A stretch of DNA of 64,000 nucleotides from Eledone cirrhosa (Eukaryota), in assembly GCA_964016885.1 (NCBI GenBank), contig OZ024741.1:231012001-231076000 (forward strand), in the 5' to 3' direction. The stretch's first letter is position 1; each line of letters begins with the position of its first letter. This document shows, piece after piece, positions 4,700 through 61,729 of this stretch. The translations under genes and the position numbers were made by a program. Under the pieces are notes generated by a model that made no database searches, was not told the origin of the DNA, and was given only the letters and a program-made list of their open reading frames with translations.

Positions 4700-5950
4700 G
4701 GGAAAAACGTCAGATGTTGGTGTTCTATGCCTCAGGTGTTACATTTAAATGCTCTATTTGTACGGCGATATTTATATCAATGGACGTCTACAACAAAAAG
4801 CAGTAGAATGTGCGATTTCAGAATGTCAGCCAAGATGTTATCAATAGGTTTGTTGTCATGTCACCAATAAGTTTATTGACTGATTGGAGGGAGGCAGGCA
4901 TGCGCCAACCACAAGATTTCTGTCACGGCATGCGATACTTTATACCATGTAATAATAATAAAGTAACTCTGCAACAGCGGCGCCGTGATTAACTTGTATC
5001 AATCTAAAGCTTTAGACAGATCTACCATCATAATTGTTAGGTATCTTTAGGGCTGCCAGTTTTGGCCCTATCTTCAGAGGATAGTTTTCTTCAATATTCA
5101 GCGATATCTTCCCGGTGGTTATTCTGAATTGCCATATATCGGAATTGTTCGATATCATGCATTCGGACATCCAAGAATGTTCCCTTTCATCTCCCCTATA
5201 CGCTCATTCCAGAGCAATTAATGCGAAATTTAAAAAATACAGAGGTGCAACTCACATGATCTAGAATCCCAGGGAAACGTATCGGCACATTCGGATTACG
5301 TCACGGCAGTGATGTGAACAAATGTTAATCAGCAAAAACTATAGGTGTACGGCTTGCACTATGAGAGGCCACTCATTTTCATCAAACAACTTCGTCAGGC
5401 ACAGGACGAGTGGGAATGTGAAGTTGCCCAGAGTCTGGTTCGGAGAACAAAACCTAGTAACGAAGCACGCATCGTGCTATTGGAAACTATAACTAGAATT
5501 TCGGGAGTGGGTGGTGAAATCGTATATCACCTCCACTATCGACTACTACATGGACGTCATGAATTGCCTTTATTCAAATCTTAACATACTGGTCTCACGC
5601 CCTTTATAATTTAAGTTCAAATGATTTGGCACTCTATCTTGTGTAGAAACCGTTTTCTGGAAAGTTGGGTATATTGTGGCTGACATTGAGCAGACATGCG
5701 CTAAGGCTACATCTCGAACGTTTCCTTAACCGTGAGCAGGCGGAGTTGGTGTTCGCCAGATTGTTGATTCACGCAGCTACAGTTATGAGTGAACCAAAGA
5801 TTGTGAGGGAGCGCTTGTCAACTTGACACCTTGTAGTGTTCACAGACGTCTAACACTTGAGCACTAGACTCGGTGGAAATCCACTTGACAATTCCACAGA
5901 AGATCAGATACGCGGGAAGATACAATGTTTCTGGATAACACTAAGCGTCG
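4700..5950 (+). mobile_element. Decayed L1/Tx1-like LINE RT remnant
   Basis: caatctaaagctttagacaga (QSKA.DR) and ttttggccctatcttcagagg (FGPIFRG) resemble the element at 15880-17700. Confidence 0.45.
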
Positions 5951-8759
5951 AATATAATCGACTACTCACCGATGGATAAATTCTAGAAATTCGTGATCTA
6001 ATAGAGCTTCTGATGATATTGACGGTTTGACATAAGCTCTACAAGCTCGGAAGTACCGTCAGTTGAGGGTGAAATAAAGCTTCATGAATGTACTCATTCA
6101 AAGGTTCAGTGTTGCTGATCGGTGTTGCTATGTCGAACAGATGGATCTGGCTACCACCTGAGTTCATAATAAATATAGCCTCGCCAGCCTGGACCAGCAG
6201 GTGGTGTTCATGCAGCTGTTAGTCCTTTAGAAAGAGATTTTATCGGGGAGGTGGTTGAAAATTGTGGAGACGGCCTTTGCTCTTCGGCGAGTTCCTTATT
6301 AACTCTTTCAAATTTTATATGGAGTAAAACAAATCAGTAGATGGAAGGAAGTGATGCCTACCAGGAAGTTTGTGAAAGGTGAATAGAGGGGGTGGGGGGC
6401 ATATGAATGATCCACCGCGCGGGTAATCTTTCCATTATGTCTCCTCCCTGTCGGGAAATGTGCGTTTTTTTGTTTCCAATTAAAAAGTTATTATTATTAT
6501 ATTTTAAAATCACATAGTCTATGGACCCTTGACGCCTTTCATATTTTCTCCATGGAAACACTTTGTAGGTAACATAGAAATCATTTTGATTTTCATTGAC
6601 AAAACACAAAATAATGTATCTTCTGCGTCAGTAAATAAATTTGGCTCACATTCATTAAATTACAGTAATTCATAGTAAGTATACTCTATGTCCCTGACTG
6701 TGAACAAATGAGTTAGGTATTGGAGGGAAAAATACGAAAGTGCTCCAGGTGTGGTAAAACAAAACACCTTAGGATATTTTGACTTATGCAAAGTGAGAGA
6801 AAATTAAAACGAATGTCAAATTCATTGCTTCCTACTCCACAACCCCACCAGTAATATAAAAATATAGTACTTTTCTCGTACATACACAGAGGAGGCGGGG
6901 CGTCCTTTTTTTACGATAAATTAATTTGGCAACTTCTCCAGAAGCCACACAGAAATACACCTCCTCCATATTCAATAAAACCAGAAGAATAGAGAATGTC
7001 ACAATAGGAATCCGAATGACAATGGTAGTGGAGCAGCGGGTGGTGACAGGAAAGCTGTGTATAGAAAGCAGCGCTTCAACATTAGAATTAAAATAAAAAT
7101 AGCACTAAAACAAACAGCGCACAAAGCCTCCCCAAACAACCTCATCAATGACGGCTTCACCAACTACAATTACAAGAGATCTAGAAAATTACGAGTGTAA
7201 AAACAACAAAGAAGATTACAGCAGTCGTGAAGCAGGAAGATAAAACAAAACTCACCTGCAAGCCACGACCACAACAAAAGGAACTAGAAAAAATTAACAA
7301 GACCTTCGTCATCAATTCCGAATATAAACGTTAGATTTGATGGAATTTGTACAATACCTCAAATACAATATTATTTCTTCCGGTGTGGGACTGGCCGGGA
7401 CAACGTTCTTCAGAGCCCAATGGGGGGGGGGGGGGGGGATTTATTGAGGACTATATTTGAAATGTATAGATCTTTCAGAAAATGTTGTCCATAAAACGTA
7501 GGAACCCTAAAATCACTATAATCAAGAGAGTTATACGGCCACTAAGAACAAAGCGATTAGCCATGTCATTATCCTCCTTTATTTCTCCCATCCTGCTCCT
7601 TAATGGTCTTAGGCATCATAATTGCACGGGGAATGGGGTCGGCACAGAAACAGAGATGTCGGCCCAACGACCCTAGTTCATCACGCTTGGATGTGGACCA
7701 CCAATGCGTAGTCGCCTACCTTCTTTCTCAATGATTAAAAATGTAGGCATCTTCCTGGACGTGAGAATAGCGACTGAAGTGATTTTAAACTGGTGACAAG
7801 CTACGCCTCAGCACTAGCAGTGTGATCACTGATTCAGAGTCTTAGTGACAACCCCAAATCATGTAACTCATCAGTAATAGAGGGTGATATATACGGCATT
7901 TTGAACGCACAGATTCTGTAAAAATAAACGTTAGAAGTACTGCATGCAAAATCCTCGCTAACCTATTCAGTTTTTTTCAATTGTCTGACAGGTTTCGTTG
8001 CGATTTTTCAGAGGGAGCATTATGAGCTTGTCAAATAGCAGTGACTCCTGTAGAACTTATCTAGAATGTTCTTCAGGTTTCAGTTAGAAATAGTGTAAGT
8101 TACAAGATTTTATAATCGCCTCCGCATATTATAAATTAGTAATTTGTGCCGTCAAATTAAAATAGACCTTGTGTCAGGGAGGCTTTTGCTGTAGCTAAAC
8201 GCCTCTTTCACAGCACAGACAGATTTAAAATTCTAATGACCGAACTAGTTAGCAAAGCATCGAAGGCGGTTGTTATAATCAACAATAAGGGGTGGGTTTC
8301 AATGAAAAGATAAAAATAAAATTTACATCAGTTATTTTTATAAAAAATAGCCAAAAATAGGCTTACCGTATACGTTCGCGATCTATGTACATATCTCTTT
8401 CTTGAACTGTTCATTTACAACTCATTTTTCCACCAGAAAAATGCTCAAAGGTTTTCTAGAAATATCGAAACATGGGCATATTCTTGATTATTCAATCTGC
8501 CGTAAACGAGATTTCAGGTTGTTTCACTGTCTGTGTTATGTGTTGGACAGACACTCATCTTCTCTGTGGCAAAAGTAATCCAGAGCATTGTAAGAATTTA
8601 TAAGGCTCTCAATCCACGTGTATTATACCACTCAGGTCTAAGGTCGAGTTGTGTCTATTTCAAAGATACGGAAATTATATTGAACACTGGAGCGAGCAAT
8701 GTACGTATTATTTTTTAATCCCTCGGAGTTCAGCGCAGCTAACTTTAATCACTTCCCTC

Positions 8760-15879: not shown

Positions 15880-17700
15880 AGTTGATTTTCGTCGAAGACT
15901 AGAGTTTCTCAAAGGACGTCCTTGCTTTCATCCGCCACTAACCCTCTATAGAAGAACAAGGAGGAGTTTCTACCGATCATACTTCCCGTTTGTTGGAAGC
16001 TGTGAGCGTTCATCTTCAATCTCCGCTTCAACCAAGACTACATCTCCATTAAAGAGATGATCTGGTGAACATGCGTTTGGTGAACGGCAACCACACATGT
16101 TCATCGTTAAGGAAAAGAAGATGCATCATCAGTCACGCATTTCCAGTTTTCAACGCAGTGGGCCTTGACAGCAGATGGACTCCCTGATCATCGGAAGGCA
16201 TCCTTTCCACAATATGCGGAAGAGCAAACAATCCAGTGTTGTTAGACGGAGTATAGGGCAATGAGCAGTTGGTCAGGCATTTATAGAAAACGGACGTGAT
16301 GTTCACCTTCGCCACCTCTGTCCTACCTTCCCTTGCCAACTGTCCCTCAGCCCATTTCTGGGTGAGGTTTGCTATTCTATTTCGTTACCACAAACCAGTT
16401 TTTCTCCATGATGCGATTCTGACCGATCTAGACCCCAAGTAATTCAACCGATCCAACTGTTCAGCGTCCGAAGAGCAATGGTATTCACCCCGATGTGTGT
16501 GATGCTCGACAACAATGACGTCGTCCCACTAAGCTGACACAGATGACCCTCAACATCCCTATTACCAGTTGTGTGTTGAGAGTCAATACACACTAGTCGA
16601 ACGAGAGGTGTAGGCTTCGTAGACCGTGCACATAATGCTGAAGAATGCCGAAATGTGACCGTTCACTCTAACCGTAGAGCAGAAGTCGCTGTGCATAGCA
16701 GCCATCAACCATCTGAAAACGGTGCTGAAGCCTACTTCTTTCAGGACTGCCCCAATTAGGTATGGTGGACCCTATCAAATGCTTTGTATTGATCCAAGTC
16801 GACCGCTGAACCAACCTCTGTATGATGTATCGTATAATGGAGGGGGCTTCTGAGGGACAGAACTCTTGGTTATTGCACATGTCTGAGCCTTCCTTGCTAA
16901 ATCATTCACGACAAGCGCCAACCTCTTCGCTAAGACTTTGGATAAAGTTGTGTACTCTATATTTATTAGAATTTCGGGCCTAAAATTATCGAAAAAGATC
17001 CACTTTGTACGAGTCCTTTCTCAGCAGTGCCATTACTCCTCAGCTGACAGAAGTGACAAATCCTCCCATTCTGCTGCCAGTTGAAGAAGACGTCCGCCAA
17101 CATGTCGCCGAACATGTCTTGCATGTGAACGCAAAGCCGGTGGGGCAGACCATTGAAACCGCGTGATTTACCTCTAGTGAAGCCGTTAATTTCTTCCAGT
17201 ATTTGAGCGACTGTTATTGGCGTTCTGAAACACTGCAACTCCGTCAAAGATAGCAAAGGTTGCCTGTAGAGATGAGCAGTGAAGTCCATCCCGTGTTCTA
17301 GCGCGCCGTTTCTCCCGAACAATTGAGCAAAATATTGCTGAAAAGCCGTACATGCTGCACCAGAAATCGGATTAAGACTTTGTTTACACGCTGCTCCTCC
17401 ATCACTCAATCACACTGAACGGCTTTCGTCCCCTGGTGTCTAAGAGCACGCGCCTTAGCTCTGACCAGGCAGCTTTCGTGCATATCATTGAATAATATAT
17501 CCAGGGCCAATCTCACCACCAGAAGGTCGGTTACAAAGCCTTTGCTAGTAACCTCTTCTAGATTTTTAACTAGCACCATCTCTTATCTAATTTTCTCTAA
17601 TGATAGGAAGATGGTCCGTATTGCGAGATCCTGCTCTTTTCAGAACAATACGGGAAATTGGCATCTATATTACGGATGGCTCAGAGATGAGTATACAGTT
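15880..17700 (-). mobile_element. Decayed L1/Tx1-like LINE (RT region)
   Basis: PITVAQILEEINGFTRGKSRGFNGLP (cf. KSPGxDGLP) and LDQYKAFDRVHH on the minus strand; multiple frameshifts. Confidence 0.7.
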
Positions 17701-19560: not shown

Positions 19561-19565
<5 letters not shown>

Positions 19566-19755
19566 CGAAGGAGGTGCGGTAAGGAACCAGATCTACCATA
19601 ACGCACCAGAGTACTCAATACTTAGGATAGTAGAGTGGGTATTAGGAAAGTATTTGACCCTGACGGCAGAGCTCAAGTCGATTCGACGGCTATTTCTGGA
19701 CTTGTCCAAAAATAGCCTTCGAAACGGCTTGAGCTCTGCCGTCGGGGGCAAACGT
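19561..19755. mobile_element. Truncated fold-back copy of the 23411-24834 HHR repeat family
   Basis: 19561-19710 matches 23411-23551. 19657-19747 is a hairpin made of two inverted 3' halves of the ribozyme (GAAACGGCTTGAGCTCTGCCGTC). Flanked by (TA)n on both sides. Confidence 0.75.
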
Positions 19756-20737
19756 TTTCCTATATATATATATATATATTCAATCAAATGCGAATCCTAC
19801 AAAGTGAATCCTACAAATGTCGATATATAAATTACTGCTGCCATCATTATCCAATACCAGCATTTCTGAAAATACTGCTTTATATGGTCAAATTAACATT
19901 TAACGAAAATGATCAAGGAGATGAGTAAAAATCAACCAAGAAGATTGAATGAATCCTTTCCACTACGTGATGCTAACCAGGCAGTATTTTACTAAATCCA
20001 TATGCCAGCTATGTGTTGGAGGAATAATATCAAAACCTACTCGGGGTATATCACACGTTGAACAACGCAATAGGTGTCTCCTGATGTCATATCTATTACA
20101 TAATATATTCTACTGAAATATATATAACAGTAACAATGTAATCAATTAAATTATGTAATATTAAAATACACTGATTTCTCCTTCATTGTATATCGTATAT
20201 ATTTATATATTCTATTACATGTTCCAACAGAAATGATGTGGCCATGATGAGATACAGCCATTGACATATATTATTTAAACAATTACAAACACCTAGAAGC
20301 AGAAAGAATCAGTGTTATTAGGTTTACGCATTTGTTGAAAGAGAGTAAAAGAGAGCGAAGAATAAACGTATTGGAGATTAGTCCTACATGTGAGTAAAGT
20401 TGTATATTAGAAAAGAGTAAAGAAAAGGAATACGAAGGAGAAAGTGGAGGAAGATAAACGAGGAGAGAACATCCCGAAAGACTGGAGTATTGAACAGTTA
20501 AAAATTATCTGAAGTCTGAGTCATCCGGTGGTGAATAGTGGCGGGTAGATTTCTGGGTCAGAAGCACGTATATGTGCACGTAAATATAATATTTAATATA
20601 AAAACGTATTTGGTAATTACTTTAATGAATAATCTGCTTCATTATATTTAACACAATAGGATTTTATACACATGCTTATTTGAAAACATCTTTCTAAGAC
20701 GTATGGAAAATATTGGTTTTATACTGCATATTATAAT

Positions 20738-20992: not shown

Positions 20993-21404
20993 TATACAGT
21001 AATATATACATATATATGCATATATACATGCACACACACATACATAAGTTTTAAGGTGGCAAAACTTAAATTCCTTGCTGCGCTGTTTTCCTAACGATAT
21101 ATCATTATATGCATACAATTTTTTCATTTGAATTATTGATTCTCTGGACAAACATCGAAATGAAGTTTTTCACTGCCCTTCTTCAGAATATAGTTAGAAA
21201 TAGACGATAAATAGAAAGAAAAGCCATGCGTTGAGACAGGATCTCGAAATCATGGTCGTGGCTACAGAGCCGGCGATGACCGTGGATCGGGAGTAGGGTG
21301 TACAGAGTTTGGTGTGGTTTGGTTGGGAGGAAATGAAATCAAGTAAGGAGAGGGCGTCAGAGAGTTGGAAAAATATGAAAGTAGAGAGGGTGTGGCGAGT
21401 GTAA

Positions 21405-21474
<70 letters not shown>

Positions 21475-21542
21475 CAAGGTTTAGCAAATAATGAAAAAGT
21501 TTCAATATAAATTTTAAAAAATTGACTTTACCTACTATAGTT

Positions 21543-21625
21543 ACATTTACCGATCGGTTTCGAATCTCAAAAATAAACGGAGACCATACGGCCTTCGTTG
21601 CAAAGAAAGATTCTCGTCAGAAGGT
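21543..21625 (-). ncRNA. Type I hammerhead ribozyme (family A, copy 1)
   Basis: Same fold as 22264-22346 with one stem I mismatch (AATGT). Confidence 0.75.
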
Positions 21626-22025
21626 TCTTTTCATTCGAAGAATATAAAATTCTTGAATTTAAATTACGAACTAGTGCTATCCAAAACTGTTCCCGAGATG
21701 AGAGTGAATGAAGTGGAATCAATTTTTTCAAGGGCCGAAGTAAAGATAGAGGCAGAGGGAGGTAGGTCAAATCGGCCGCCACTATCACTAGCAGCAGTCG
21801 GAACGACCAAATTTTTTCTCAACATAGAGGAGGATGGTAATAATAGGATATGTGTTCCTTCACGCACAAGGCGCTAAGGGACGCATGTATTGTCCAACCA
21901 AATGCCAATGTGGTTCAATGGCAGGTTAATAAATTAACGAGCCAGAACATATATAATCAAGGTTTAGCAAATAATGAAAAGGTTTCAAAATAAATATTAA
22001 AAAATTGACTTTACCTACTATAGTT

Positions 22026-22108
22026 ACCTTTACCGATCGGTTTCGAATCTCAAACATAAACGGAGACCATACGGCCTTCGTTGCAAAGAAAGATTCTCGT
22101 CAGAAGGT
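22026..22108 (-). ncRNA. Type I hammerhead ribozyme (family A, copy 2)
   Basis: ACCTT CTGACGA GAATCT..AGATTC GAAAC CGATCG GTA AAGGT on the minus strand. Confidence 0.85.
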
Positions 22109-22263
22109 TCTTTTAATTCGAAGAATCCGCCCTCTGCCTCTATCTTTACTTCGGCCCTTGAAAAAATTGATTCCACTTCATTCACTCTCATCTCGGGAAC
22201 AGTTTTGGATAGGGCTAGTTCGTAATTTAAATTCAGGAATTTTATATTCTTCGAATGAAAAGA

Positions 22264-22346
22264 ACCTTCTGACGAGAATCTTTCTTTGCAACGAAGGCCG
22301 TATGGTCTCCGTTTATTTTTTAGATTCGAAACCGATCGGTAAAGGT
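22264..22346 (+). ncRNA. Type I hammerhead ribozyme (family A, copy 3)
   Basis: Stem I ACCTT/AAGGT; core CTGACGA 22269-22275; stem II GAATCT/AGATTC around a ~40-nt loop; GAAAC-CGATCG-GTA. Predicted cleavage after A22341. Confidence 0.85.
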
Positions 22347-22529
22347 AACTATAGTAGGTAAAGTCAATTTTTTAAAATTTATTTTGAAACTTTTTCATTA
22401 TTTGCTAAACCTTGATTATATATGTTCTGGCTCGTTAATTTATTAACCTGCCATTGAACCACATTGGCATTTGGTCGGACAATACATGCGTCCCTTAGCG
22501 CCTTGTGCGTGAAGGAACACATATCCTAT

Positions 22530-23411
<882 letters not shown>

Positions 23412-23505
23412 TAACGAAGGAAATGTGGTAAGGAACCAGGTGGACCATAACGCACCAAAGTACTCAATACTTGAGGTAGTAGAGTGGGTAATAGGAACCA
23501 GTAAG

Positions 23506-23599
23506 ACCCCGACAGCTGAGCTCAAGCCGTTTCGACGGCTAATTCTGGACTAAATGAACATTTATCCTGGTATTTAAATAGCCGATCTTCTCAAGGGGT
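23506..23599 (-). ncRNA. Type I hammerhead ribozyme, U3-A8 core variant (family B)
   Basis: Mirror image of 24728-24821. Confidence 0.8.
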
Positions 23600-24727
23600 A
23601 ATTCCATATATGGTCAAAGTGATTGTCAAAAATCAGTAGTAATTCTGTGGTTGCAAATTAGTAGGGGAGATGGTGGCTAAACCTGCCAGTAGGAGAAAGA
23701 GGGGAGGGGGTGGAGTAGACCCAATCAAGCGTTGGTAGTGCCAGCTACAGCTGGGCATGAGGTCAAAGAAGATACAGGGGAGGGGGAGGGGGAGGAAGTC
23801 GGAACGGTAGGTAGAACAATGGGGGGTAAAAATAGGAAAGAAAAAATACTGAGAGTAAAGAAAAGCAAAAAAGTGTAAAGAAAAAATTAAATTCTACGAC
23901 CTAGGTGTCAGGCTATTGTTAGGCGAGAATAAAATAAAGAAAGAAAGAAAGAAGTAAATAAATAAATAAATAAATAAATAAGGAAATAAGTAAAAGAACT
24001 AGGTGGGACGAATTAAGCAAGGACCCTTTTAAGAGGTATAAGTACGTAAATGATACGGTGACTGGTCAACAAAAGGGGCCAAAATACTAAAGAGACTACC
24101 ACGAAATAAACAATAAAGGTTTCCATCCCGGGCCAGCAACGACCCAGTGCAACAAAGTGAACTTGTACGACATAATAATTCTGAGTCCCGGGAAAAATAT
24201 ATACTAATGCTAACTCTAAAAGATCTAAAACAAGCTACATGAAAGTTCGTACGAAATAAAGGTAGTCACCGTATCATTTACGTACTTATACCTCTTAAAA
24301 GGGTCCTTGCTTAATTCGTCCCACCTAGTTCTTTTACTTATTTCCTTATTTATTTATTTATTTATTTATTTACTTCTTTCTTTCTTTCTTTATTTTATTC
24401 TCGCCTAACAATAGCCTGACACCTAGGTCGTAGAATTTAATTTTTTCTTTACACTTTTTTGCTTTTCTTTACTCTCAGTATTTTTTCTTTCCTATTTTTA
24501 CCCCCCATTGTTCTACCTACCGTTCCGACTTCCTCCCCCTCCCCCTCCCCTGTATCTTCTTTGACCTCATGCCCAGCTGTAGCTGGCACTACCAACGCTT
24601 GATTGGGTCTACTCCACCCCCTCCCCTCTTTCTCCTACTGGCAGGTTTAGCCACCATCTCCCCTACTAATTTGCAACCACAGAATTACTACTGATTTTTG
24701 ACAATCACTTTGACCATATATGGAATT

Positions 24728-24821
24728 ACCCCTTGAGAAGATCGGCTATTTAAATACCAGGATAAATGTTCATTTAGTCCAGAATTAGCCGTCGAAACGG
24801 CTTGAGCTCAGCTGTCGGGGT
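24728..24821 (+). ncRNA. Type I hammerhead ribozyme, U3-A8 core variant (family B)
   Basis: Stem I ACCCC/GGGGT; core TTGAGAA 24733-24739; stem II GA(T)CGGCTA/TAGCCGTC; GAAAC-GGCT-TGAGCTC-AGCT-GTC. Predicted cleavage after C24816. Confidence 0.8.
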
Positions 24822-24835
24822 CTTACTGGTTCCTG

Positions 24836-25071
<236 letters not shown>

Positions 25072-25125: not shown

Positions 25126-25162
25126 ATATAAGATCAAAAGATGGTTAAAGGAGTTCCATGTA

Positions 25163-25229
25163 TTTTATTATGCGCATTTCAAAAACAAACATCATCATGC
25201 AATAATATTTGTGTTTTCATCAGATAAAA
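25163..25229 (-). ncRNA. Type I hammerhead ribozyme (family C) in PLE 3' end
   Basis: Stem I TTTTAT/ATAAAA; CTGATGA; ~15-bp stem II AAACACAAATATTATT/GATGATGTTTGTTTTT; GAAA-TGCGCA-TA. Confidence 0.85.
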
Positions 25230-26116
25230 CAGGAGAACATGATATGAAGGCTAAAAAACACTTGTGGATAGTGCAGTTTTAAATCAACATATGAAAAGTG
25301 GTTTTCGATTGATGTGTGATATTGGGAAAAATATTTTATTTAGAGAGGGGGGGTGGAAAGGATGAAAAAGGGGAGGAGATGAGAGGGAGAGATGGGTGAT
25401 AGAGAGAAAGAAAGAGATCGTTTTTATAACTGAGAGGAGATATATTGTTTTACATAGAGAGGTTGAAAACCGTTGGAAGATAATGTATAAATTAAAAATT
25501 TGAAATTAACGAAGGGAGGATATGTGCGAGGAAAGAATATTTTATTTATGGAGGGGGGGGGGTGAAAAAAGGGGGAGGAGATGAGAGTGAAGGTGGAGAG
25601 GGAGAGATGGGTGATAGAGAGAAAGAGATAGTTTTTATAACTGAGAAAAAGATATATTGTTTTACATAAATTAAAGGAATTTGAAAATCAACGAAGGGAA
25701 TTTATGTATGAAGATAGAGAGAAAAAATAATAATTGTGGATGAATATTCTAACGTCAAAAAAAGTGTGTGTTGATAAGTATTGTGGCAATTTCAAAATTA
25801 ACGAAGAGAAAAATTATTAAGGTTTGTGTGTAGAAGGATTTGAGAAAAATAATGTGAAGTTAAAGTTTGTATATTGAAGGAATTGATAATATATGCGAAT
25901 AAAGAAGGATTTGAGAAAAATAATGTGAAGTTAAAGTTTGTATATTGAAGGAATTGATAATATATGCGAATAAAGAGTTAATATGTATTAAGAATGAGTT
26001 CGTTGATGGGGAGAAAAAAAAAAAATAAATTAAGGATGAAATTGAGATTAAAAAGATTTATGATAGAGAGAAAAAATAATAATGATTGCGGATGAATATT
26101 CTAACGTAAAAAAAAA

Positions 26117-26151
<35 letters not shown>

Positions 26152-26326
26152 ATGTATATGTTATGAAGGATTTTACAAGGTGAAGATAGAATGAGAGTAA
26201 TGAGTAAACAAGTATTATAGAGTGTATAATGCCCTTTAAAGTAAGGTGGGAAGATGGGTATATTTTAAAGAGGTGTATGTATATGTGCCTTTGAGAAAAG
26301 ATTCTAAATTGATAAAGAATTGAATA

Positions 26327-27133
26327 TTAACTGTATACTTTGTGAAAAGTCCTATGGAATTTATGGAGGCAGATAGAAAATAAATCTGTACGTCTATTTA
26401 TTATAGACTCTAGGTTAGAGATAATGGTAAATTTTTCATTTAGGCAGAGATTACAGATTTTAGATAGAGAGCTGTTCAAGTATGAGGATGCAGAAGAAAC
26501 CTTCTTCCAAAAGATGGTATATTTAATGTTTTTGTCTTTTAAGGAGCATATGAGTTCTGAGAGAGCAGTGTTGGTTCTTTTAAGTTTGTATTTGAAAGAT
26601 GAATGATGATTATAGAGACGAGCTTTAAAAGAGGTGGAAGTGGAGCCAAAATAGGTGAAGGAATTGGTGCTAGTTATAATTTTACATTCATAAATTAAGT
26701 TTTTATCGAGACAATGGTTGTTGAGAGGACATTTATTTTTAATGCGGCAGTTGCAATTAGAGAGATTATTAATGAGTGACCTAGTGTTATCTATAGAAGG
26801 AATTGGATTGGAGAAGTTGTTTGCGATAGGAATAATAGGAATAATAGTTTCTTGATTTACAGTTGGATTATGAACATTTAGCGAAGTTGTGTTTGACGTT
26901 GTATTTGTGTTTACAGAAGTTAGCCTAGGGTTTACAATGACGTCGGGAGTACTATTACTGTTATTATGAAATTCAATGTTGGAAGGAAGAGATTTAGTAT
27001 TTAGTATTTTATTGTTGTGTTTAGAGATGATGTTGGAAATATTGGAGGATGTAGAATAAGAAAATTTGATGGTGTGTTTGTTAAATATTTTACTATAGAT
27101 ATGTGAGGGAGGGAAGCATTTATTTAAGGCACT
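26327..27133 (-). pseudogene. PLE linker + GIY-YIG endonuclease (open frame, 5'-truncated)
   Basis: FPPSHIYSKIFNKHTIKFSYSTSSNI...CNCRIKNKCPLNNHC..NLIYEC..TYFGST.TSFKARLYNH..NTALS..CNLCLNEK. The ORF track's N-terminus is only (TA)n read-through. Confidence 0.9.
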
Positions 27134-27134
27134 A

Positions 27135-27210
<76 letters not shown>

Positions 27211-27363
27211 TATATATATATTTAAAGTATATGATAAACACGAAATGTGTTTACATTGCAACAGACAAAGTTAGCTATTAATGAAATAAACTAACAAAAG
27301 TGAATACAATTTGTCTGTCTCGATACAAGTCAATAAAGACAAGCCTATATTGGCAACAGCCAT

Positions 27364-27540
27364 GATTCCTGGACATATTTAAATTTCAAAATTCAAACCT
27401 GTTCTGTAGACGAATTTGAACCTCGAAACCCAAATAAGTTTCGCAATGGTGGAATGTGAATTGAAAAATAAAGAGAATCGAAATGGAATAGAAATAAAAG
27501 AGTGAAATATCCAAATCATCTGTGCATATCAACAGGAATC
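27364..27540 (-). ncRNA. Large variant hammerhead candidate (family D)
   Basis: Reverse complement of the 28179-28355 fold. A further copy at 27921-28090 is cut at stem I by the inversion. Confidence 0.65.
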
Positions 27541-28178
27541 CAGTAAGATTAGTCTATCTCACATCAAAGATTTTGCAGGACTGACTACACGTGGGTAGGC
27601 AGGCCAAAACTAGCTATCCCACATTCACGGTGCTAGAAATAACAGCCGCTTATGCAGGATTAAGGATCAGCTCTTACAATAAAGGAGCTATACATTATAT
27701 TATATTTTGAGAATAAACTCTCAGTCGTTTATAGTAATTAAGCTCCAGGAAGGGGCTCTTCCGAGCAGTTAAATACATTTAAAGTATATGATAAACACGA
27801 AATGTGTTTACATTGCAACAGACAAAGTTAGCTATTAATGAAATAAACTAATAAAAGTGAATACAATTTGTCTGTCTCGATACAAGTCAATAAAGACAAG
27901 CTTATATTGGCAACAGCCATGATTCCTGGACATATTTAAATTTCAAAATTCAAACCTGTTCTGTAGACGAATTTGAACCTCGAAACCCAAATAAGTTTCG
28001 CAATGGTGGAATGTGAATTGAAAAATAAAGAGAATCGAAATGGAATAGAAATAAAAGAGTGAAATATCTAAATCATCTGTGCATATCAACGTGAATGTGG
28101 GATAGCTAGTTTTGGCCTGCCTACCCACGTGTCGTCAGTCCTGCAAAATGTTTGATGTGAGATAGACTAATCTTACTG

Positions 28179-28355
28179 GATTCCTGTTGATATGCACAGA
28201 TGATTTGGATATTTCACTCTTTTATTTCTATTCCATTTCCATTCTCTTTATTTTTCAATTCACATTCCACCATTGCGAAACTTATTTGGGTTTCGAGGTT
28301 CAAATTCGTCTACAGAACAGGTTTGAATTTTGAAATTTAAATATGTCCAGGAATC
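28179..28355 (+). ncRNA. Large variant hammerhead candidate (family D; core UUGAUAU)
   Basis: Stem I GATTCCTG/CAGGAATC (8 bp); core TTGATAT 28187-28193; stem II GCA/TGC around ~77 nt; GAAAC; ~23-bp G-U-rich stem III extension; GTC 28345-28347. Confidence 0.65.
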
Positions 28356-28735
28356 ATGGCTGTTGCCAATATAAGCTTGTCTTTATTGACTTGTATCGAG
28401 ACAGACAAATTGTATTCACTTTTATTAGTTTATTTCATTAATAGCTAACATTGTCTGTTGCAATGTAAACACATTTCGTGTTTATCATATACTTTAAATG
28501 TATTTAACTGCTCGGAAGAGCCCCTTCATGGAGCTTAATTATTGTAAACGACTGAGAGTTTATTCTCAAAATATAATATAATGTATAGCTCCTTTATTGT
28601 AAGAGCTGATCCTTAATCCTGCATAAGCGGCTGTTATTTCTAGCACCGTGAATGTGGGATAGCTAGTTTTGGCCTGCCTACCCACGTGTAGTCAATCCTG
28701 CAAAATTTTTGATGTGAGATAGACTAATCTTACTG

Positions 28736-28912
28736 GATTCCTGTTGATATGCACAGATGATTTGGATATTTCACTCTTTTATTTCTATTCCATTTCAATT
28801 CCCTTTATTTTTCTATTCACATTCCACCATTGCGAAACTTATTTGGGTTTCGAGGTTCAAATTCGTCTACAGAACAGGTTTGAATTTTGAAACTTAAATA
28901 TGTCCAGGAATC
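28736..28912 (+). ncRNA. Large variant hammerhead candidate (family D)
   Basis: Tandem copy 557 bp downstream of 28179; one stem III G-U pair is G-C here. Confidence 0.65.
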
Positions 28913-29141
28913 ATGGCTGTTGCCAATATAAGCTTGTCTTTATTGACTTGTATCGAGACAGACAAATTGTATTCACTTTTATTAGTTTATTTCATTAATA
29001 GCTAACTTTGTCTGTTGCAATGTAAACACATTTCGTGTTTATCATATACTTTAAATGTATTTAACTGCTCGGAAGAGCCCCTTCCTGGAGCTTAATTATT
29101 GTAAACGACTGAGAGTTTATTCTCCAAATATAATATAATAT

Positions 29142-29240
<99 letters not shown>

Positions 29241-34266: not shown

Positions 34267-35390
<1,124 letters not shown>

Positions 35391-35464
35391 TATATTATGA
35401 AGAGAGAAGAAACATTTAGATATAATTAGTAATAAAATGTATCATACCTAAACTGCTCCTACAT

Positions 35465-35554
35465 TCCTCGACTACGTAGTTTCGTGGCATAAACAAAAAC
35501 AATACATCATAAAGATATAGAGCTTTTGCGAGGTCTGCCGACTTATCAAGAGGA
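35465..35554 (-). ncRNA. Type I hammerhead, U3-A8 variant (family H)
   Basis: Mirror of 36125-36213. Confidence 0.8.
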
Positions 35555-36124
35555 TACCTCGTTTTACTAGCTTCAAGAACGCGTCTATATGATGTGAGAA
35601 AGAATTCTAAAAGGCGGAGGGGGAGATAGTCACGTGATACAACAATATGATACATTTTATTACTAATTATATCTAAATGTTTCTTCTCTCTTCATAATGT
35701 ACTTTTAGCTCTGATACTGGTTCAGTCTAATCCAACCGGATTGACCTGTCCCAGTTATTCATACAGCAACATTGGTCAAGGTTGGCACCATTAACTCAAG
35801 GATGGATGTGGATACATTCATGTATATGTGGCATGTATCTGTGTGTTTCTAAATATATTGTTCATAACTCCCTCTGGTCGAGTAATCTTTGAAGTGTGGT
35901 GACTGCTGGAAAGCTTCCATTACTAATACTTCTCGCCACCTTCACCACCTCTTCTGCGGCTTCGATATAAATACCCCCTCCGCCTCCGTGGTATTTTTGG
36001 GGGGGTTATAAGAGGCTTAGCTCTGTTTCTTGACCGTTGTATCACGTCACTATCTCCCCCTCCACCTTTTGGGATTCTTTCTCACATCATATAGACGCGT
36101 TCTTGAAGCTAGTAAAACGAGGTA

Positions 36125-36213
36125 TCCTCTTGATAAGTCGGCAGACCTCGCAAAAGCTCTATATCTTTATGATGTATTGTTTTGTTTATGCCACGAAACT
36201 ACGTAGTCGAGGA
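36125..36213 (+). ncRNA. Type I hammerhead, U3-A8 variant (family H)
   Basis: Stem I TCCTC/GAGGA; core TTGATAA 36130-36136; stem II GT(C)GGCA/TGCCAC around ~45 nt; GAAAC-TACGTA-GTC. Predicted cleavage after C36208. Confidence 0.8.
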
Positions 36214-36446
36214 ATCTAGGAGCAGTTTAGGTATGATACATTTTATTACTAATTATATCTAAATGTTTCTTCTCTCTTCATAATGTACTTTTAGCTCTGA
36301 TACTGGTTCAGTCTAATCCAACCGGATTGACCTGTCCCAGTTATTCATAGAGCAACATCGGTTAAGGTTGGCACCATTAACTCAAGGATGGATGTGGATA
36401 CATTCATGTATATGTGTGTGTCCGCATGTATCTGTGTGTTTCTAAA

Positions 36447-36505
<59 letters not shown>

Positions 36506-36608
36506 TACTACTGTACGTCTGTATACATGTATGTATGTACGTATACATACTTATATTTAAGTAACAGCCGTACTAAGAGTGAGAATTGAAATTTCGTTTC
36601 ATTTTTTC

Positions 36609-36646
<38 letters not shown>

Positions 36647-36647
36647 T

Positions 36648-36686
<39 letters not shown>

Positions 36687-36702
36687 TAATATATATAATT
36701 AT

Positions 36703-39293: not shown

Positions 39294-39340
<47 letters not shown>

Positions 39341-39386
39341 AAATAAAATAAATAAGTCAAATGTTTAAAATTTGGCTTCGTTTATT

Positions 39387-39441
39387 ACTGCTATATATAT
39401 TTCGGTGACAGCCATCTTTGGATGTGACTTCTTCAGGCAGT
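39387..39441 (-). ncRNA. Type I hammerhead (family I) in PLE pLTR
   Basis: ACTGC CTGAAGA AGTCACATCCA-AAGA-TGGCTGTCACC GAAA-TATATA-TA GCAGT AATAAA. Its 5' half recurs at 43578-43608 (+) with a better-paired stem II. Confidence 0.75.
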
Positions 39442-40758
39442 CCGAATTAGTGTGGTAGAGACGAGTCCACATGTTGTTGAGGCGTATAACATTGTCAATA
39501 CTCTGACATGCCCAGTTCCTGCTTGGGTTGTTATTTCACTGAGGAACTGGAATCATATGTATTTAAACAAACGAATTTCAGCGTCAAAGGACACTTCACC
39601 TCTCATTGGTGACTTGTTAGAACATTCCTCAGTCAAAAGTGTATAGAAATTCGTTTTGAGGTAAGCCAATCTGTAGTTGTGGTTCTTGTTATTGTTAGGT
39701 ACATCTGACCTCTATTCTTATGTTGGTAGTGGTGTTGTTGTTGGAGTCAGCTAAAAAAATGATAAAGTGGTAGAAGGAATAAGCTGGTAAAGGAACAAAA
39801 TAAAATAAAATAATCGAATAAAATGTGTGTGTGTGTTATACCCATCTCAATGTTATAAAGATGTGTAAGGTCACTCTTACCATTGGTCAGTTTTGAGAGC
39901 ATTTCTCAGTCCAAAGTCTATAGAAATTCCTTCTGGGGTGAGGCTCCCTGTAGTGTTTGTGTTTGCTATTGTTAAGTACATCTGACTCTACACTTATTTT
40001 GGTAGTGTTGTTGGTGTCGTGGTCAGCTTATGTCTTGCTGCTGCTGACAATTTAGAAATATCTGTGTGTGTGTTTCTTCATCCTTCCTGCCACCATCTCC
40101 CGTGGTGGTGGTGGTGGTGGTGGTAGGGGGGTTCTGGCATGTATATGAAGAAATAGAAGGCAATCAAATGAAGAAAACAGAAAATAAATAAATAATAAAT
40201 AGAGAATAAATGAAAAATTAATGAAAAAGTAATGAAAAATGAAAATGGAAAATGAAAATTGAAAATGAAAAGTGACAATAAAATAAGATAAAAAGTGTGT
40301 GTGCTATAACCAATCTCAAGGTCAGAAATATGTTGGATAAAGGGGTAGGAGGAACAAGATGGTAAAAGAATAAAATGAAATAGGATAATCAAATAGAATG
40401 TGTGTGTGTTATAACCAATCTCAACTTAAATATAAATATAGGGTGATAAAGTGAAGAAAACAGAAAACAAATAACAAATGAATAATGAGAAATCAAAAAT
40501 GAAAAATCAAAAATCAAGTAAAGTAATATTTGTGTGTGTTATAAAGATGTTGGCCAAATTATAAAGGCTGTGTCAGAATCAATCTCTAAGCTCTCATGTT
40601 GTCTGCTCAGCCTGGGTTGATCCCTATGGCTTGAGGGGACTTCCCAACCTATGGTATTGTTACTGCCCATAAAGCTTGAGGGAGTTGTTGCCGAGAGGTG
40701 TCTACATGTTCTGGAGAAGTCCCTATAGCTTGAGGGGAGTTCACATCTTATTGTTTTG

Positions 40759-42415
40759 CTACTGTCCATATATCTTGAGGAAGGTCCCGACTCTGAGGTG
40801 TCTGCATGTCCCGAAGAAGTCGGTTCTGAGGTTTATCAGGCCGCTTACACCTCTTAGTATCTCGAGGGTCTCGTTCAGACATAGTTTGCATATGCAATAT
40901 CCCCCTTTATCGGGTGGTACTTTCCTGATTATGGACCAGACCAGAGAGTACGGGGTCTTGTCCAGCTTAAGCTTCCAGATCAGGTCGGAGAGAGCCGTAC
41001 TTTTTCTTTTGGCCTCTTTATTGAAGGAATAGCGATGGTTATACCAGCGGGTTTTAAAGCTCATTCATGTGTCTCCTATGTAGAGATGTTGGGAGTTGGG
41101 AGTTTTAACCCTACAACAGTATACTAGGTTCTTCTTAAGGCATTCATTACCAAGTGGGCATGATTCGGGGTTTCTGCAGTTGCAGAGGGTGGTCGACCTC
41201 TGCGTGCCTAAATTGGGGTTCCCGTTAGGTGTTACATGGTGGACTTCCACCAGGCACGGTGGGAGGTCCCCGGGTCTGTTTGGGTTTCTTGGGTGGGCAT
41301 TGGGTCCCCCATCTCTCCTTTCACATGGTTCTGCTGAGTGCTTGTATTGCCATCTTCTGGGTGTGTGTGGTTTTTAAGCCTACTCTTGTTGATGCTAGCT
41401 ATGTGTTGGGACAGATTTCTCGTGGTGGAATACGAGAGCTTCACAGTGTGTCTGTTGAAGATCTTGTGGTATCTATGGTCCCTCGGGAAGCGTTTATCAA
41501 GTGGCCCAAAGAATGATCGGGCCAAGCTGTTCTTTAGGGCCGCTGAGTAGGGTGGGTTGCACCACGTGATTTTTCTGTGTCTCCTCCTATATGTGTGGGT
41601 CGGGGGCGTCGTGAGTTATTGGAGATTTGTTGGGTTGCTGGTGGTTACCGCATTGTTGCTTCCCCTTTGAGCGCTATGCGTTTTTCTATGTTCAGGGCCC
41701 GAATCTGTGGGGTCGTCGTTGCCCGCGCTGGGAAATCTGCCGTGGGGCGGTCCCTTGTTGCGCCCCCCTCCTCCACGTGTCCTGCGGTTGGGGTCGTCGG
41801 GCCTGGGGTTGTTAGCATCACCCCTGAGACTGCTACCCATATTGGGTTTCATCTCATGGTTAAGCGTACTCGTGACCAATGCCCGTGTGGTGGTGTTGGG
41901 CTCATGGTGCCTATTTGTTTCTGTTCTGCCTGTATTGTTAGGGTTTGACCCCACCCACTGACAACGTAGGTGTGGGTGTCCGTTGGGCCATCCCCATCTC
42001 GGCGTTTCGGACTATATGTTATACTTTGGCCATGTGCTGCCTTATATAGATTTGCCTTGTAATATTCAGCGTTGTTATCGAAGATTTCCTTACTTGCGGA
42101 CAGGCTGGAGATCCTGTCCGAGACACTCTTCACCACGGCCTTGGTTATGGATCTAGGGTGGTTTGACTTGGCGTTAACATACACGAGTTTCCTGTTGGGC
42201 TTGTGGTAGGGGTAGTATTGTTCGGTGTTCAGGTTTAGGGTGGTGTCTAGGAAGTTAACTACCTTTCTATTTGTGTCTAGTTCGATACTGAGCCCCTGGT
42301 TCTTAAAGAAATGGCGAATACGCCTCCTCATTCCCTCCCACATATTGGTGCTGTGGTCATATACTGTGAAGAGAGCATCGTCACGATATAATCCGCCGCC
42401 CAGGCAGGGGATTTC
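40759..42415 (-). pseudogene. PLE reverse transcriptase (YRDD) + GIY-YIG endonuclease pseudogene
   Basis: GLYRDDAL..VNFLDTTLNL..PYHKPN..YVNAKSNHP; RKITWCNPPYS..FPRDHRYHKIFNRHTVKLSYS; CNCRNPESCPLGNEC..LVY..YIGDT*MSFKTRWYNH..CKLCLNE. Two frameshifts and two stops. Confidence 0.9.
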
Positions 42416-42660
42416 ATCTTTAACGTATCGGATCGAGATCTTCGTCTGATAGTACAGTATAAAGGTAGAGGACACAGCTTTCAGTCTGAAGTGAGAGTGG
42501 AGAAAAGGAACAAGAAGAACACAGGTAAAAGAGGAGAGAAGTTTACGTAAGATTTGTGTGATGAATAATTCAAAAAAAAGTACGCTTTCCGAATTCGGGC
42601 TGATCCACTGCTCGTCCGTGGACACACACACACAGACGCACGCACACACTCACACACTCA

Positions 42661-42719
<59 letters not shown>

Positions 42720-42769
42720 ACACACACACACACATGTATGTATATATATATATATATATACACACACTT

Positions 42770-43630
42770 TATCTTACTTTATTTGAATCTTCATTTTATA
42801 TTTCACCCTCCATGTTCATTTTCATTACTTTTTCATTAGTTTTCATTAATTTTTCATTTATTCTTTATTCTCTATTTATTAATTATTTTCTGTTTTCTTC
42901 ATTTTATTTTATTGCCTTATATTTCTTCATATACATGGAAGAACCCCACCCCCACCCTCGCCACCACCACGGGAGATGGTGGCAGGAGGGATGAAGAAAC
43001 ACACGCAGATACTTCTAAATTGTCAGCAGCAGCAAGACATAAGCTCACCACAAGACCAATAACACTACCCACATAAGGGTAGAGGTCAGATGTACTTAAC
43101 AATAGCAAACACATACACTACAGGGAGCCTCACCCCAGAAAGAATTTCTATAGACTTTGGAATGAGGGATGCTCTCAAAACTGACCAATGGGAAGTTTGA
43201 CATTTTTTTGTTATTTTGTTCCTTTACCATCTTATTCCTTCTACCACTTTATCAATTTTTTTTTTTAGCTAACTCCAACAATAACAACACTACCAACACA
43301 AGAATTGTGGTTAGATGTACCTAACAATAACAAAAACAACAACCACAGATTTGCTTGCCTCGGAACGAATTTCTATAGAATTTTGAATGCGGAATGTTCT
43401 AACAACTGACCAATGAGAGGAGAAGAGGCCCTTTGACACTGAAATTGATTTGTTTGAATTCATATGATTCCAGTTCCTCAGTGAAATAACAACCCAACCA
43501 GGAACTGGGCATATCAGAGATTTACAAAGATATACACCTCAACAACATATGAACTTGTCTATACCACACTAATTCGGACTGCCTGAAGAGGTCACAGCCA
43601 AAGATGGCTTATTGACTTATTTATTTTATT
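42770..43630 (+). mobile_element. Inverted copy of the PLE 3' pLTR
   Basis: Diverged reverse complement of ~39340-40300, with the HHR 3' half deleted. Confidence 0.85.
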
Positions 43631-51534: not shown

Positions 51535-51739
51535 AAATATGCACATTTATTTTCTTCTTAGTCCGTAGATATTAACTACACAAATAATCAATTAAACGGA
51601 GTTAAGTCTAAAATGTAAGTTTGAAGAAAAAAAATATAAATGTTACCAAAAATTCTCTCCGTCCCGATTATCGATAATTTCGCTCATACTTTGTGGAAAT
51701 GTCTAATCGTTGCATTATCCATGTATATATATATATATA

Positions 51740-52279
51740 TGAAAAAATGAACGAAATTTCATTTCTCACTCTTAGTACGGTTGTTATTTAAATATAAGTA
51801 TGAATACGTACATACATATATGTATACAGACGTACAGTAGTATGTATATATATACATAAATTCACACATATATTTATGTACGTATGGATTTACCGAACAT
51901 TTATTACAATTTGTAAACAAACATCCCGAATTAAGCCGTACAGTGTTTAGCAACCATCGTTGTCGTTTTGTTCAACACTGACAAAGGAACGATGTACTAG
52001 TTTCAAGCTTATTAGCTATAGTCAACACCGTATATCTTCCTGCCAGATGATTGAACGTCTGAAAGTATATACTTTCTATATGCATATTAACGGCTAAGCA
52101 GCCTAATTTGCATATTGAGTGTGTTAATCGGCCGGGCGCACCGAATACGATAAATGGAAAAAATGAAACGAAATGTCATTTCTCTTTCTTAGTACGGGTG
52201 TTACTTAAATATAAGTATGTATACGTACATACATATATGTATACAGACGTACAGAATTATGTATATATATACATATATG

Positions 52280-52318
<39 letters not shown>

Positions 52319-53709
52319 GGATTTACTGAAAATGTATTACAAGGATCGGTTGGTTTATAAACAAACATCCCGAATTAATCCGTACAGTAGTTTAGCAACC
52401 ATCGTGGCCCTTTTGTTACACACTGACAAAGGAAAGGTGTACTAGTTTCAAGCTTATTAGCTATTGCCAGCACCGTATACCTTCCTGCCATTTGAAAGTA
52501 TATACTTTCCTTATGCATATTAACGGCTGAGCAGCCTAATTTGCATATCGAGTGAGTTAATCGGCCGGGCGCACCGAAAACGATAATAGGAAAAAATGAA
52601 ACGAAATTTCATTTTTCATTCTTAGTACGGCTGTTATTTAAATATAAGTATGTATACGTACATATATATATGGATACAGACGTACTGTAGTATGTATATA
52701 TATACATAAATACACACACATATATATACGTATGGATTTACCGAGCATTTATTACAATGCTCGGTTTGTTTGTAAAAAAACATCCCGAATATGCTGACGA
52801 TAGCTCATAAGCTTGAAACTAGTAGAACGTTCCTTTGTCAGTGTTGAACCAAGTGGCAACGATGGTTGCTAAACACTGTACGGCTTAATTCGGGATGTTT
52901 GTTTACTAACAAACCGAGCAATGTAATAAATGTTCGGTAAATCCATACGTACATATATATATAGGCCGGTCAGCCGTTAATATTTATGAGGAAAGTATAT
53001 ACATTCAGACGTTCAATTATTTGGCAGGAAGGTACACGGTGATGTCGAAAGCTAATAAGTTTGAAACTAGTACATCGTTCCTTTGAACAAAAGGGCAACG
53101 ATGGTTACTAAACACTGTACGGCTTAATTCGGGATGTTTGTTAGCAAACAAACCCAGTATTGTAATACATTTTTGGTAAATCCATACGTACATATATATA
53201 TATATATATGTGTGCATGTATGTATATATATACATACTTCTGTACGTCTGTATACATATATGTATGTACGTATATATATTTATATTTAAGTAACCGTCGT
53301 ACTAAGAGTGAGAAATGAAATTTCGTTTCATTTTATTTCCATTTATCGTTTTCGGTGCGCCCGCCGATTATCTCACGCGGTATGCATATTAGGCTGCTCA
53401 GACGTTAATATACATAAGGAAAGTATATACTTTCAGACTTTCAATCATCTGGCAGGAAGGTATATGGTGCTGACGATAGCTAATAAGATTGAAACTAGTA
53501 CATCGTTCCTTTATCAGTGTTGAACAAAAGGGCAACGATGGTCGCTAAAGACTGTACGGCTTAATTCGGGATGTTTCTTTACCAACAAACCGAGTATTAT
53601 AATAAATGTTCTGCAAATCCATACGTACATATATATATATGTGTGCATGTATGTATATATATATAGATACTACTGTACGGCTGTATACATATATGTATGT
53701 ACGTATACA

Positions 53710-53720
<11 letters not shown>
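51740..53720. mobile_element. Minimal-HHR tandem/inverted array (family G, ~420-430-bp unit, five HHR copies)
   Basis: Minus-sense HHRs at 51989-52031 and 52435-52476; plus-sense at 52791-52830, 53036-53078 and 53464-53506. Inversion near 52790; (TA)n flanks. Confidence 0.85.
53464..53506 (+). ncRNA. Minimal type I hammerhead (family G), intact core
   Basis: ATGGTG CTGACGA TAGCTAATAAGATT GAAAC-TA-GTA CATCGT. Confidence 0.7.
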
Positions 53721-53748
<28 letters not shown>

Positions 53749-54159
53749 GAAATGACTTCTACTGTTTCATTTGAAGGAAATCATTAGGAAAGCCGACTGC
53801 TAATGTGTTCTGGTGGTATTTATACATTTTCTCGTGGTAGGGAAAGGTGGCGATCGGGATGAGTGGAGGTCATTGGCTGATGGATTTAAAGAAAGGGGAT
53901 TCGTTGAAAAAACTATACTTAAAGAAAAAATATACTTAGATAAAATACAGGGGTATACAAAGGCAGGCACTCCTTTCTTTTCACGGTTCAATTATGCTTA
54001 GAGACAAAAGAAGTGCCTATATTAATATGCTGTCTACAGAATAGTCAGGTCTTTACAATAACACGCTGACACACGTGCACACACACACACACACACACAC
54101 ACAGGCACACCTACATGTTTAAATATGCATACATAAATACAAACATACATATATATATG

Positions 54160-57864: not shown

Positions 57865-58005
57865 GCATAGTTACTTCTCTTTGCGGTCTGAGTTCAAATC
57901 CCACCGAGGTTAACATTGCCTTTCATCCTTACGGGGTCGATAAAATAAAGTACCAGTAATGCACTGGGTAATTGATGGCCTTGTGCCAAAAGTAGAAACA
58001 ATTAT
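57865..58005 (+). mobile_element. tRNA-derived SINE (partial)
   Basis: B-box-like GAGTTCAAATCCC followed by gcctttcatccttacggggtcgataaaataaagtaccagt. Confidence 0.75.
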
Positions 58006-59912: not shown

Positions 59913-60135
59913 AGGGCGGTGGATTGGCAGTATCGGTAGAGTGTCGGACGCCAAGCTTTGCCACAAAGAGTTACGGCCCTTTATGATCTGAGTTCAAATC
60001 CCGCAGAGGTTACCTTTGCCTTTCATCCCCACGGGCTCGATAAAATAAAGTACCAGTCACGCACTGGGGTCGATTTAATCGACTTTCCCCTCCCCCAAAA
60101 TCGCTGTCCTTGTGCCTATATCAGAAACCGATATT
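59913..60135 (+). mobile_element. tRNA-derived SINE (near full length)
   Basis: A-box-like TGGCAGTATCGG, B-box-like GAGTTCAAATCCC, conserved central domain. Confidence 0.8.
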
Positions 60136-61587: not shown

Positions 61588-61729
61588 GTTGGTAACATTA
61601 ATTTCTATTTGGCATGACTGCATTGATATATCTGTTCTTCATAGTTATATAAACTAAATTGAGAGAAAATAAAATGTACTAAAATGTTCGGTTGTAAACA
61701 TTTCAAGTGATTATAAATATGATCTAGTT

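Follow-up and report, generated by a model that had tools for sequence, protein, structure and literature searches.

What is a hammerhead repeat that encodes no protein and lies, partly head to tail and partly inverted, between two microsatellites; how did it arise, and can it still give rise to an RNA of its own? These questions are raised by positions 21472-22532 of a 64,000-nt stretch of the Eledone cirrhosa genome (contig OZ024741.1, assembly GCA_964016885.1; hereafter the window). The element is flanked on both sides by (TA)n, in AT-rich, microsatellite-rich surroundings of animal type. It comprises two arms that meet head to head, and the 3' ends of both run outward into (TA)n (Table 1). 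Together the arms hold 2.2 unit-equivalents and one full monomer; thus, where the original prediction had seen three copies of a 483-bp monomer, the three ribozyme cores stand but the three monomers do not, the third ribozyme being part of the inverted arm on the opposite strand. Hammerhead ribozymes (HHRs) A and C lie on opposite strands, 166 bp apart, and opposite-strand HHR pairs at distances of 100-700 bp have been described (PMC4209133). Within the unit, whose GC content of 0.38 is below 50%, positions 172-178 form the sole alternating TA run of at least 6. Comparison of the copies over 172 nt yielded 4 private changes in A, 3 in B and 1 in C, a star-like pattern that fits drift after one insertion.

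Table 1. Parts of the element and its flanks, in window positions.
Feature	Position	Strand	Remarks
Left (TA)n target microsatellite	21402..21471	.	
Arm 1, 655 nt = 1.36 head-to-tail units (unit 1-483, then 1-172)	21472..22126	-	self-alignment
Arm 2, inverted copy, 406 nt = 0.84 unit (unit 365-483, then 1-287)	22127..22532	+	self-alignment
Head-to-head junction, 5' ends of both arms	22126..22127	.	no microhomology seen
Right (TA)n-like microsatellite	22533..23413	.	
Predicted cut-to-cut monomer, 483 nt, 38% GC, no RT/EN coding	21548..22030	-	release predicted
Internal TATATAT (unit 172-178)	21949..21955	-	main family terminus
Hammerhead A	22026..22108	-	CUGA start 22103; predicted cut after 22031; stems I/II/III 5/7/3 bp
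Hammerhead B	21543..21625	-	CUGA start 21620; predicted cut after 21548; core intact, stem I broken
Hammerhead C	22264..22346	+	CUGA start 22269; predicted cut after 22341; stems I/II/III 5/6/3 bp
Hairpin extension inside loop II of A (unit 45-68)	22059..22082	-	present in B and C too
Perfect 10-nt palindrome of A (stem III / predicted dimer interface)	22032..22041	-	duplex -16.6 kcal/mol, hairpin -0.9 kcal/mol

The three type I hammerhead cores are genuine and occur at a frequency far beyond that expected by chance. Each of the 3 copies carries CUGACGA...GAAA...GUA with G10.1-C11.1, as expected of the canonical core originally noted, and the two minus-strand cores, A and B, are exactly 483 nt apart, which upholds the proposed tandem arrangement. 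Two strict type I descriptors gave 2 hits each in the window, whereas 100 dinucleotide shuffles averaged 0.01 and 0.00; judged by stem I lengths, the hits are A and C, and B fails on stem I. Helices I-III are complete in A and C. In B, a G-to-U change at 21545 breaks helix I, with 2+2 bp remaining. An Rfam search of the window returned 0 hits at the gathering score, and with the threshold relaxed to E 10 none of the 19 matches was to a hammerhead family. The z-scores of local folding, at -1.9, -1.0 and -1.5, are weak, and the case for the hammerheads is therefore one of motif, not of stability.

Stem II has the predicted 6 bp, or 7 bp if a U-G pair in A and B is counted; its loop, originally noted as about 40 nt long, consists of a U-rich internal loop (7x7) and a hairpin. 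Stem III does lie within a perfect 10-nt palindrome, as had been proposed, but it is not as short as in dimer-type hammerheads: as a monomer it forms 3 bp closed by a GAUC tetraloop, compared with 1-2 bp. There is no extra nucleotide between A9 and G10.1. Neither an outer helix I nor a defined loop 1 appeared in the predicted folds, divergent full sequences being few. The circular 483-nt monomer is predicted to be only modestly structured (z -2.2; 4/100 shuffles equally stable; 55% paired). A candidate Pol III B-box look-alike, spotted by eye and with one mismatch to the consensus, overlaps stem II and the GAAA.

The original prediction went on to suggest that a transcript across 22108-21543 could fold into a double hammerhead and excise a 483-nt monomer. 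Such a fold can be drawn, and dimer folding is plausible and favoured in silico: for the arm 1 transcript, the double hammerhead (-134.6 kcal/mol) lies 5.6 kcal/mol below two single hammerheads (-129.0 kcal/mol), and in the unconstrained fold (-145.6 kcal/mol) the two palindromes pair spontaneously, in keeping with a palindrome that is far more stable as a duplex than as a hairpin (Table 1). These values, together with the intact cores of A and B, speak for the possibility that the locus itself is transcribed across both minus-strand ribozymes into an RNA that must fold as a double hammerhead and from which a 483-nt molecule, linear or circular, is released. We nevertheless regard this as quite improbable. 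The free fold is 11 kcal/mol more stable than the constrained double fold, and folding as a single hammerhead places copy B 7.3 kcal/mol, and copy A 2.1 kcal/mol, above the minimum free energy (MFE). The cut at 21548 requires the 3' stem I strand of copy B in the single and the double fold alike, and the base that breaks this stem is private to the copy, 315/323 X12 reads (see below) having the pairing base. Moreover, since HHR A begins 18 nt from the 5' end of arm 1, RNA read through from upstream would include the antisense arm, and antisense arm 2 is predicted to pair with 81/83 nt of HHR B.

A need for dimers does not follow from the structure either. Dimer dependence is documented for motifs with a helix III of 1-2 bp, and most invertebrate retrozyme HHRs are reported to cleave well as monomers (PMC7229834; PMC4209133). 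The unit resembles the dimer-dependent hammerheads of newt and axolotl satellite 2 and of minimal PLEs (Penelope-like elements) in having a palindromic stem III region that could pair between tandem copies; their helix III, however, has 0-2 bp. Because stem III has 3 bp here, dimer dependence is unproven. In Xenopus, 1/9 predicted dimers was reported to cleave in vitro (bioRxiv 10.64898/2026.07.22.740005). Intact members of the family may thus reasonably be predicted to release a monomer, but hardly so the copy at 21472-22532, which, given the private stem I mismatch of B and the predicted trapping of read-through RNA by the inverted arm, is probably inert as a source of monomers. Overall, what had been observed in the sequence is partly confirmed, and its interpretation, of which a Penelope-type insertion layout formed no part, is partly supported.

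The 483-nt family was followed in public reads by aligning 21474-22126 to 4 of 14 sequencing runs (X1, X4, X5 and X12; X2, X3, X6-X11, X13 and X14 were left out). X12 consists of RAD reads from another study, X5 comes from another organism and X1-X4 may be the window's own source. The query matched 1059 contigs in X1, 2267 reads in X12, 28 contigs in X4 and 2 contigs in X5, with 30/30 bins covered both in X1 and in X12. Summed depth in X1, which is not equal to copy number, was lowest at unit ~280-366 (4,899-6,299, against 19,029 in the next bin) and highest near the 3' termini. Divergent pieces with up to 32 differences bridge the joins that might have been specific to this locus by at least 31 letters per side: unit 483/1 in X4 records 9 and 12 and X5 record 17, unit 287 in X4 records 12 and 15, and unit 178 in X1 record 7. 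Since such pieces bridge all three points, the circuit is a trait of the family and not a locus-private join; the family exists in multiple copies, and its circuit, about 483 nt long, is closed and free of ORFs.

Copies leave this circuit at preferred places. Exit into (AT)n occurs at unit 178 in 104 X12 reads and 15 X1 contigs, at unit 287 in 2 X1 contigs and at unit 276 in 1 X4 contig; units 178 and 287 are also the end points of the two arms at 21472-22532, and the alternative family ends lie about 100-110 nt past the main one. A loose end at 21877 is found in 88 X12 reads. Piles of X12 read ends at 21520, 21651, 21932-21935 and 21995-22003 were rejected as family ends, as the TTAA/EcoRI-like sites nearby make it likely that they are RAD restriction ends. 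No core variant is present among the 30 variant rows listed of 113. One common family variant retains a U-G pair in stem II, and a divergent loop II (2 X12 reads, 1 X5 contig), in which U-A replaces a G-U pair, preserves the inner hairpin; other stem II variants, at 22047 (54/89 X12 reads) and 22094 (15/16), are without demonstrated compensation. Because one X5 contig covers 21553-21719 with 3 differences, the family may also be common to a relative. Seven runs with other organism codes (X5-X11) contain 0.09-0.11 of the words of 21474-22126. A viroid-like or prokaryotic origin was dismissed in view of the eukaryotic repeat context, the single polarity of the ribozyme in each unit and the 0 matches of the hammerhead patterns in metagenome contigs, viral contigs and prokaryote genomes.

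Two PLE remnants occur in the same window. At 25131-27135 (-), a 5'-truncated Hydra-type remnant lies in (TA)n and carries a hammerhead of its own (25223-25169), whose palindrome measures 8 nt. A second Hydra-type element, at 39335-43609, retains RT (reverse transcriptase) and EN (endonuclease) pieces at 42499-40774 (-), a hammerhead at about 39436-39386 and an inverted 3' copy at 42760-43609. The 5'-truncated ORF of the first remnant (26327-27250, -) ends in an endonuclease portion (26327-27135) with a CxCx5C linker, GIY-YIG, CxxC and CxH, the GIY-YIG match in Pfam (E 0.014) being below the cut-off, and two homologs of the ORF (745 and 724 aa) carry DKT and RWR/RWK motifs. This set of motifs marks the Hydra clade of PLEs (PMC8557442). 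A helper of the Naiad type was dropped, since the neighbour's endonuclease is C-terminal with CxCx5C and Naiads are without canonical HHRs. Each remnant terminates in a hammerhead whose stem II is long and whose stem III is palindromic, about 38-51 nt short of (TA)n; the hammerheads of the 483-nt unit are built alike, but the ends of the 483-nt family lie farther past the cut, at 76-82 and about 190 nt. A 30-40-bp tail that derives from two RT start sites would be expected of an autonomous Hydra-clade PLE. The Hydra HHRs in File S2 share a self-complementary stem III region of 9-10 nt.

This company raises the possibility that the locus is the 3'-terminal, pLTR-only remainder of an autonomous PLE of the Hydra or Neptune type, in which case the 483-nt period would be that of tandem pLTRs and not of an independent retrozyme. 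The layout, the (TA)n target, the long helix II and the 5-bp helix I without evident loop 1 are all PLE traits, and the depth profile, with its peaks near the 3' termini and its trough at unit ~280-366, can be read in the same way, depth again not being copy number. We still consider this unlikely, as the circuit points are bridged by copies up to about 13% divergent and by one contig of another organism, and as no RT/EN remnant is present in or adjoining the element: six-frame translation and tblastn with two Hydra-like ORFs (P0001 and P0002) revealed no such coding within it, the tblastn matches lying at 26345-27127 and 40774-42499 and none in 21472-22532. Likewise, no branch into an ORF was recognised on inspection of the 19 loose ends listed of 208; with 19/208 loose ends and 30/113 difference rows listed, the family may have such a branch, which would go against the best reading. 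Nor was a sequence link to an autonomous partner, or identity of the unit with a known pLTR, found by blastn of the unit against the window, where no meaningful match occurred outside the element (best E 0.033), or by six short exact probes, a weak test, against Naiad, Chlamys and Hydra consensus files, where 5/6 had no hit and the sixth had one, inside the Naiad file.

We favour, at a probability of roughly 0.7, a reading in which the locus represents one mildly decayed member of a multi-copy 483-nt hammerhead repeat without coding capacity. The repeat is likely a non-LTR retrozyme, a non-autonomous derivative of PLEs, and the RT and GIY-YIG endonuclease of a Hydra-type PLE would copy it into (TA)n. 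This reading draws on the three cores, the tandem and inverted layout, the outward (TA)n, the closed circuit, the TATATAT terminus and the Hydra-type remnants nearby.

The window holds further repeats, several of them TA-flanked. A family with a period of ~433 bp lies tandem and inverted among TA tracts at 34420-36700 and 51700-53800 and has small Hydra-style hammerheads (4-bp stem II, 6-nt palindrome); it is likely another retrozyme-like family. The TA-flanked tandem and inverted element at 27213-29144 (period ~557 bp, copies 97% identical) contains CUGACGA at 28138 (-), but scans did not find a full hammerhead in it. In a TA-flanked element at 23414-24836, 571-nt arms that are 100% complementary surround a 200-nt spacer, which marks either a very young insertion or an assembly effect; a short relative with 86% identity is found at 19565-19762, and CUGANGA is absent from both. 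A stretch at 15900-17400 (-) resembles, by eye, a decayed LINE reverse-transcriptase remnant. A dispersed short repeat of 70-75% identity (1323-1519, 57871-57968, 59917-60082, 61728-61826 and 62856-63263) may resemble a cephalopod SINE.

Tandem and inverted copies might also have been made at the DNA level, by slippage, fold-back or misassembly between TA tracts, with the hammerhead as a passenger. The long, unstable (TA)n tracts of the flanks would favour such events, none of the contigs listed spans a whole arm, and the junction 22126/22127 falls outside the segment compared with reads (21474-22126). We judge this very improbable all the same: the private changes of A, B and C show that the copies are not one collapsed or duplicated read, the tandem and inverted plan recurs in unrelated TA-flanked families within the window, and the family ends are common to many copies.

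On the retrozyme reading, intact tandem copies elsewhere would be transcribed and their RNA cleaved by the hammerheads, acting as monomers or, more rapidly, as dimers paired through the palindrome; a host ligase could close the resulting 483-nt RNA. The PLE protein would nick both strands of a (TA)n tract, priming from each target 3' end would take place at a UA-rich stretch within the RNA (unit ~172-178 and ~285-287), and the RT would cross the ribozyme cut site twice in arm 1 and once in arm 2. The two cDNAs would then be joined head to head, and the copies would have drifted by about 1.5% each afterwards. Because the RT would have passed the cut site, and in arm 1 twice, the template would have been a circle or an uncut multimer; a cut linear monomer could not be the sole template without template jumps.

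Precedents exist for several of these steps. An inserted PLE forms a partial tandem, in many cases accompanied on its 5' side by an inverted copy, and (TA)n is the target of Hydra elements (PMC8557442). In work with a purified PLE protein, both strands of the target were nicked and extended, and reverse transcription initiated inside the RNA (PMC11167929). Retrozymes of coral, mussel and axolotl have been shown to form circles (PMC7229834), and circles have been proposed for PLEs (PMC4209133). With PAc, however, the main substrate is described as uncut RNA, cleavage as dispensable and the RT start site as not homologous to the target (PMC11167929); this speaks against priming by base pairing and against any need for a circle. 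As PAc favoured uncut RNA and its initiation is not homology-based, we put circle and uncut multimer at about even odds. The internal TATATAT, instead of being a priming site, may have been captured from an old target. The fullest version of the scheme, in which the locus would be a fingerprint of the way animal retrozymes move, is tentative and somewhat doubtful: a Hydra-clade PLE enzyme would nick both (TA)n strands, prime in telomerase style on internal UA-rich patches of a circular RNA made by the hammerheads, continue across the ligated cut site over more than one unit length and join the two opposed cDNAs.

In terms of known classes, the unit combines tandem type I HHR cores 483 nt apart, the lack of an ORF, a GC content below 50%, a closed multi-copy circuit and a length of a few hundred nucleotides. 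The class of non-LTR retrozymes is further marked by expression as linear and circular monomer RNA, by target-site duplications, which (TA)n would mask, and by the lack of PBS and PPT. Judged at the sequence level, the element fits the definition of a non-LTR retrozyme; it fails as an autonomous Hydra-clade PLE for lack of an ORF with RT and C-terminal GIY-YIG, yet carries the PLE insertion signature, (TA)n with a partial tandem and an inverted, 5'-truncated copy. With the animal non-LTR retrozymes of coral, mussel and axolotl (PMC7229834; bioRxiv 10.64898/2026.07.22.740005) it shares an ORF-less tandem unit, one type I HHR per unit, low GC, multiple copies and coexisting HHR-bearing PLEs. Its 483 nt compare with unit sizes of 150-450 nt in one of these sources (PMC7229834) and 51-972 nt in the other (bioRxiv 10.64898/2026.07.22.740005). 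It differs from them in its long, structured stem II without evident contact between loops 1 and 2, and in the (TA)n flanks and inverted arm; the words 'inverted', 'microsatellite' and 'opposite' occur 0 times in PMC7229834. With Hydra-clade PLEs, including Hydra-1_Obim (PMC8557442), it shares (TA)n targeting, an HHR of canonical core near the 3' end, a palindromic stem III region of 9-10 nt and a partial tandem with a 5'-adjacent inverted copy, whereas it has no RT/EN ORF, its short probes did not match the published consensi, and the HHR of Hydra-1_Obim differs.

The ribozyme and the retrozyme class are well known, PLEs have been named as likely helpers of retrozymes (PMC7229834; PMC7761336), and the derivation of animal retrozymes from PLE termini has already been argued (bioRxiv 10.64898/2026.07.22.740005). 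Neither the 483-nt family nor retrozymes of cephalopods were found described in the open-access literature, to which the search was confined, subscription papers being outside its scope. What is added is modest: target, ends and layout point to enzymes of the Hydra type. The sources consulted leave open by which autonomous element animal retrozymes are mobilised and if the circle serves as the template (bioRxiv 10.64898/2026.07.22.740005; PMC7761336; PMC7229834). A non-coding hammerhead unit with a full PLE insertion signature, beside Hydra-type remnants, would supply a defined set of RNA, target and enzyme with which the questions of helper and template could be put in vitro. If the proposed scheme is true, a retrozyme family would be tied to a named helper clade and to a circular RNA template, and several such families apparently coexist in this genome.
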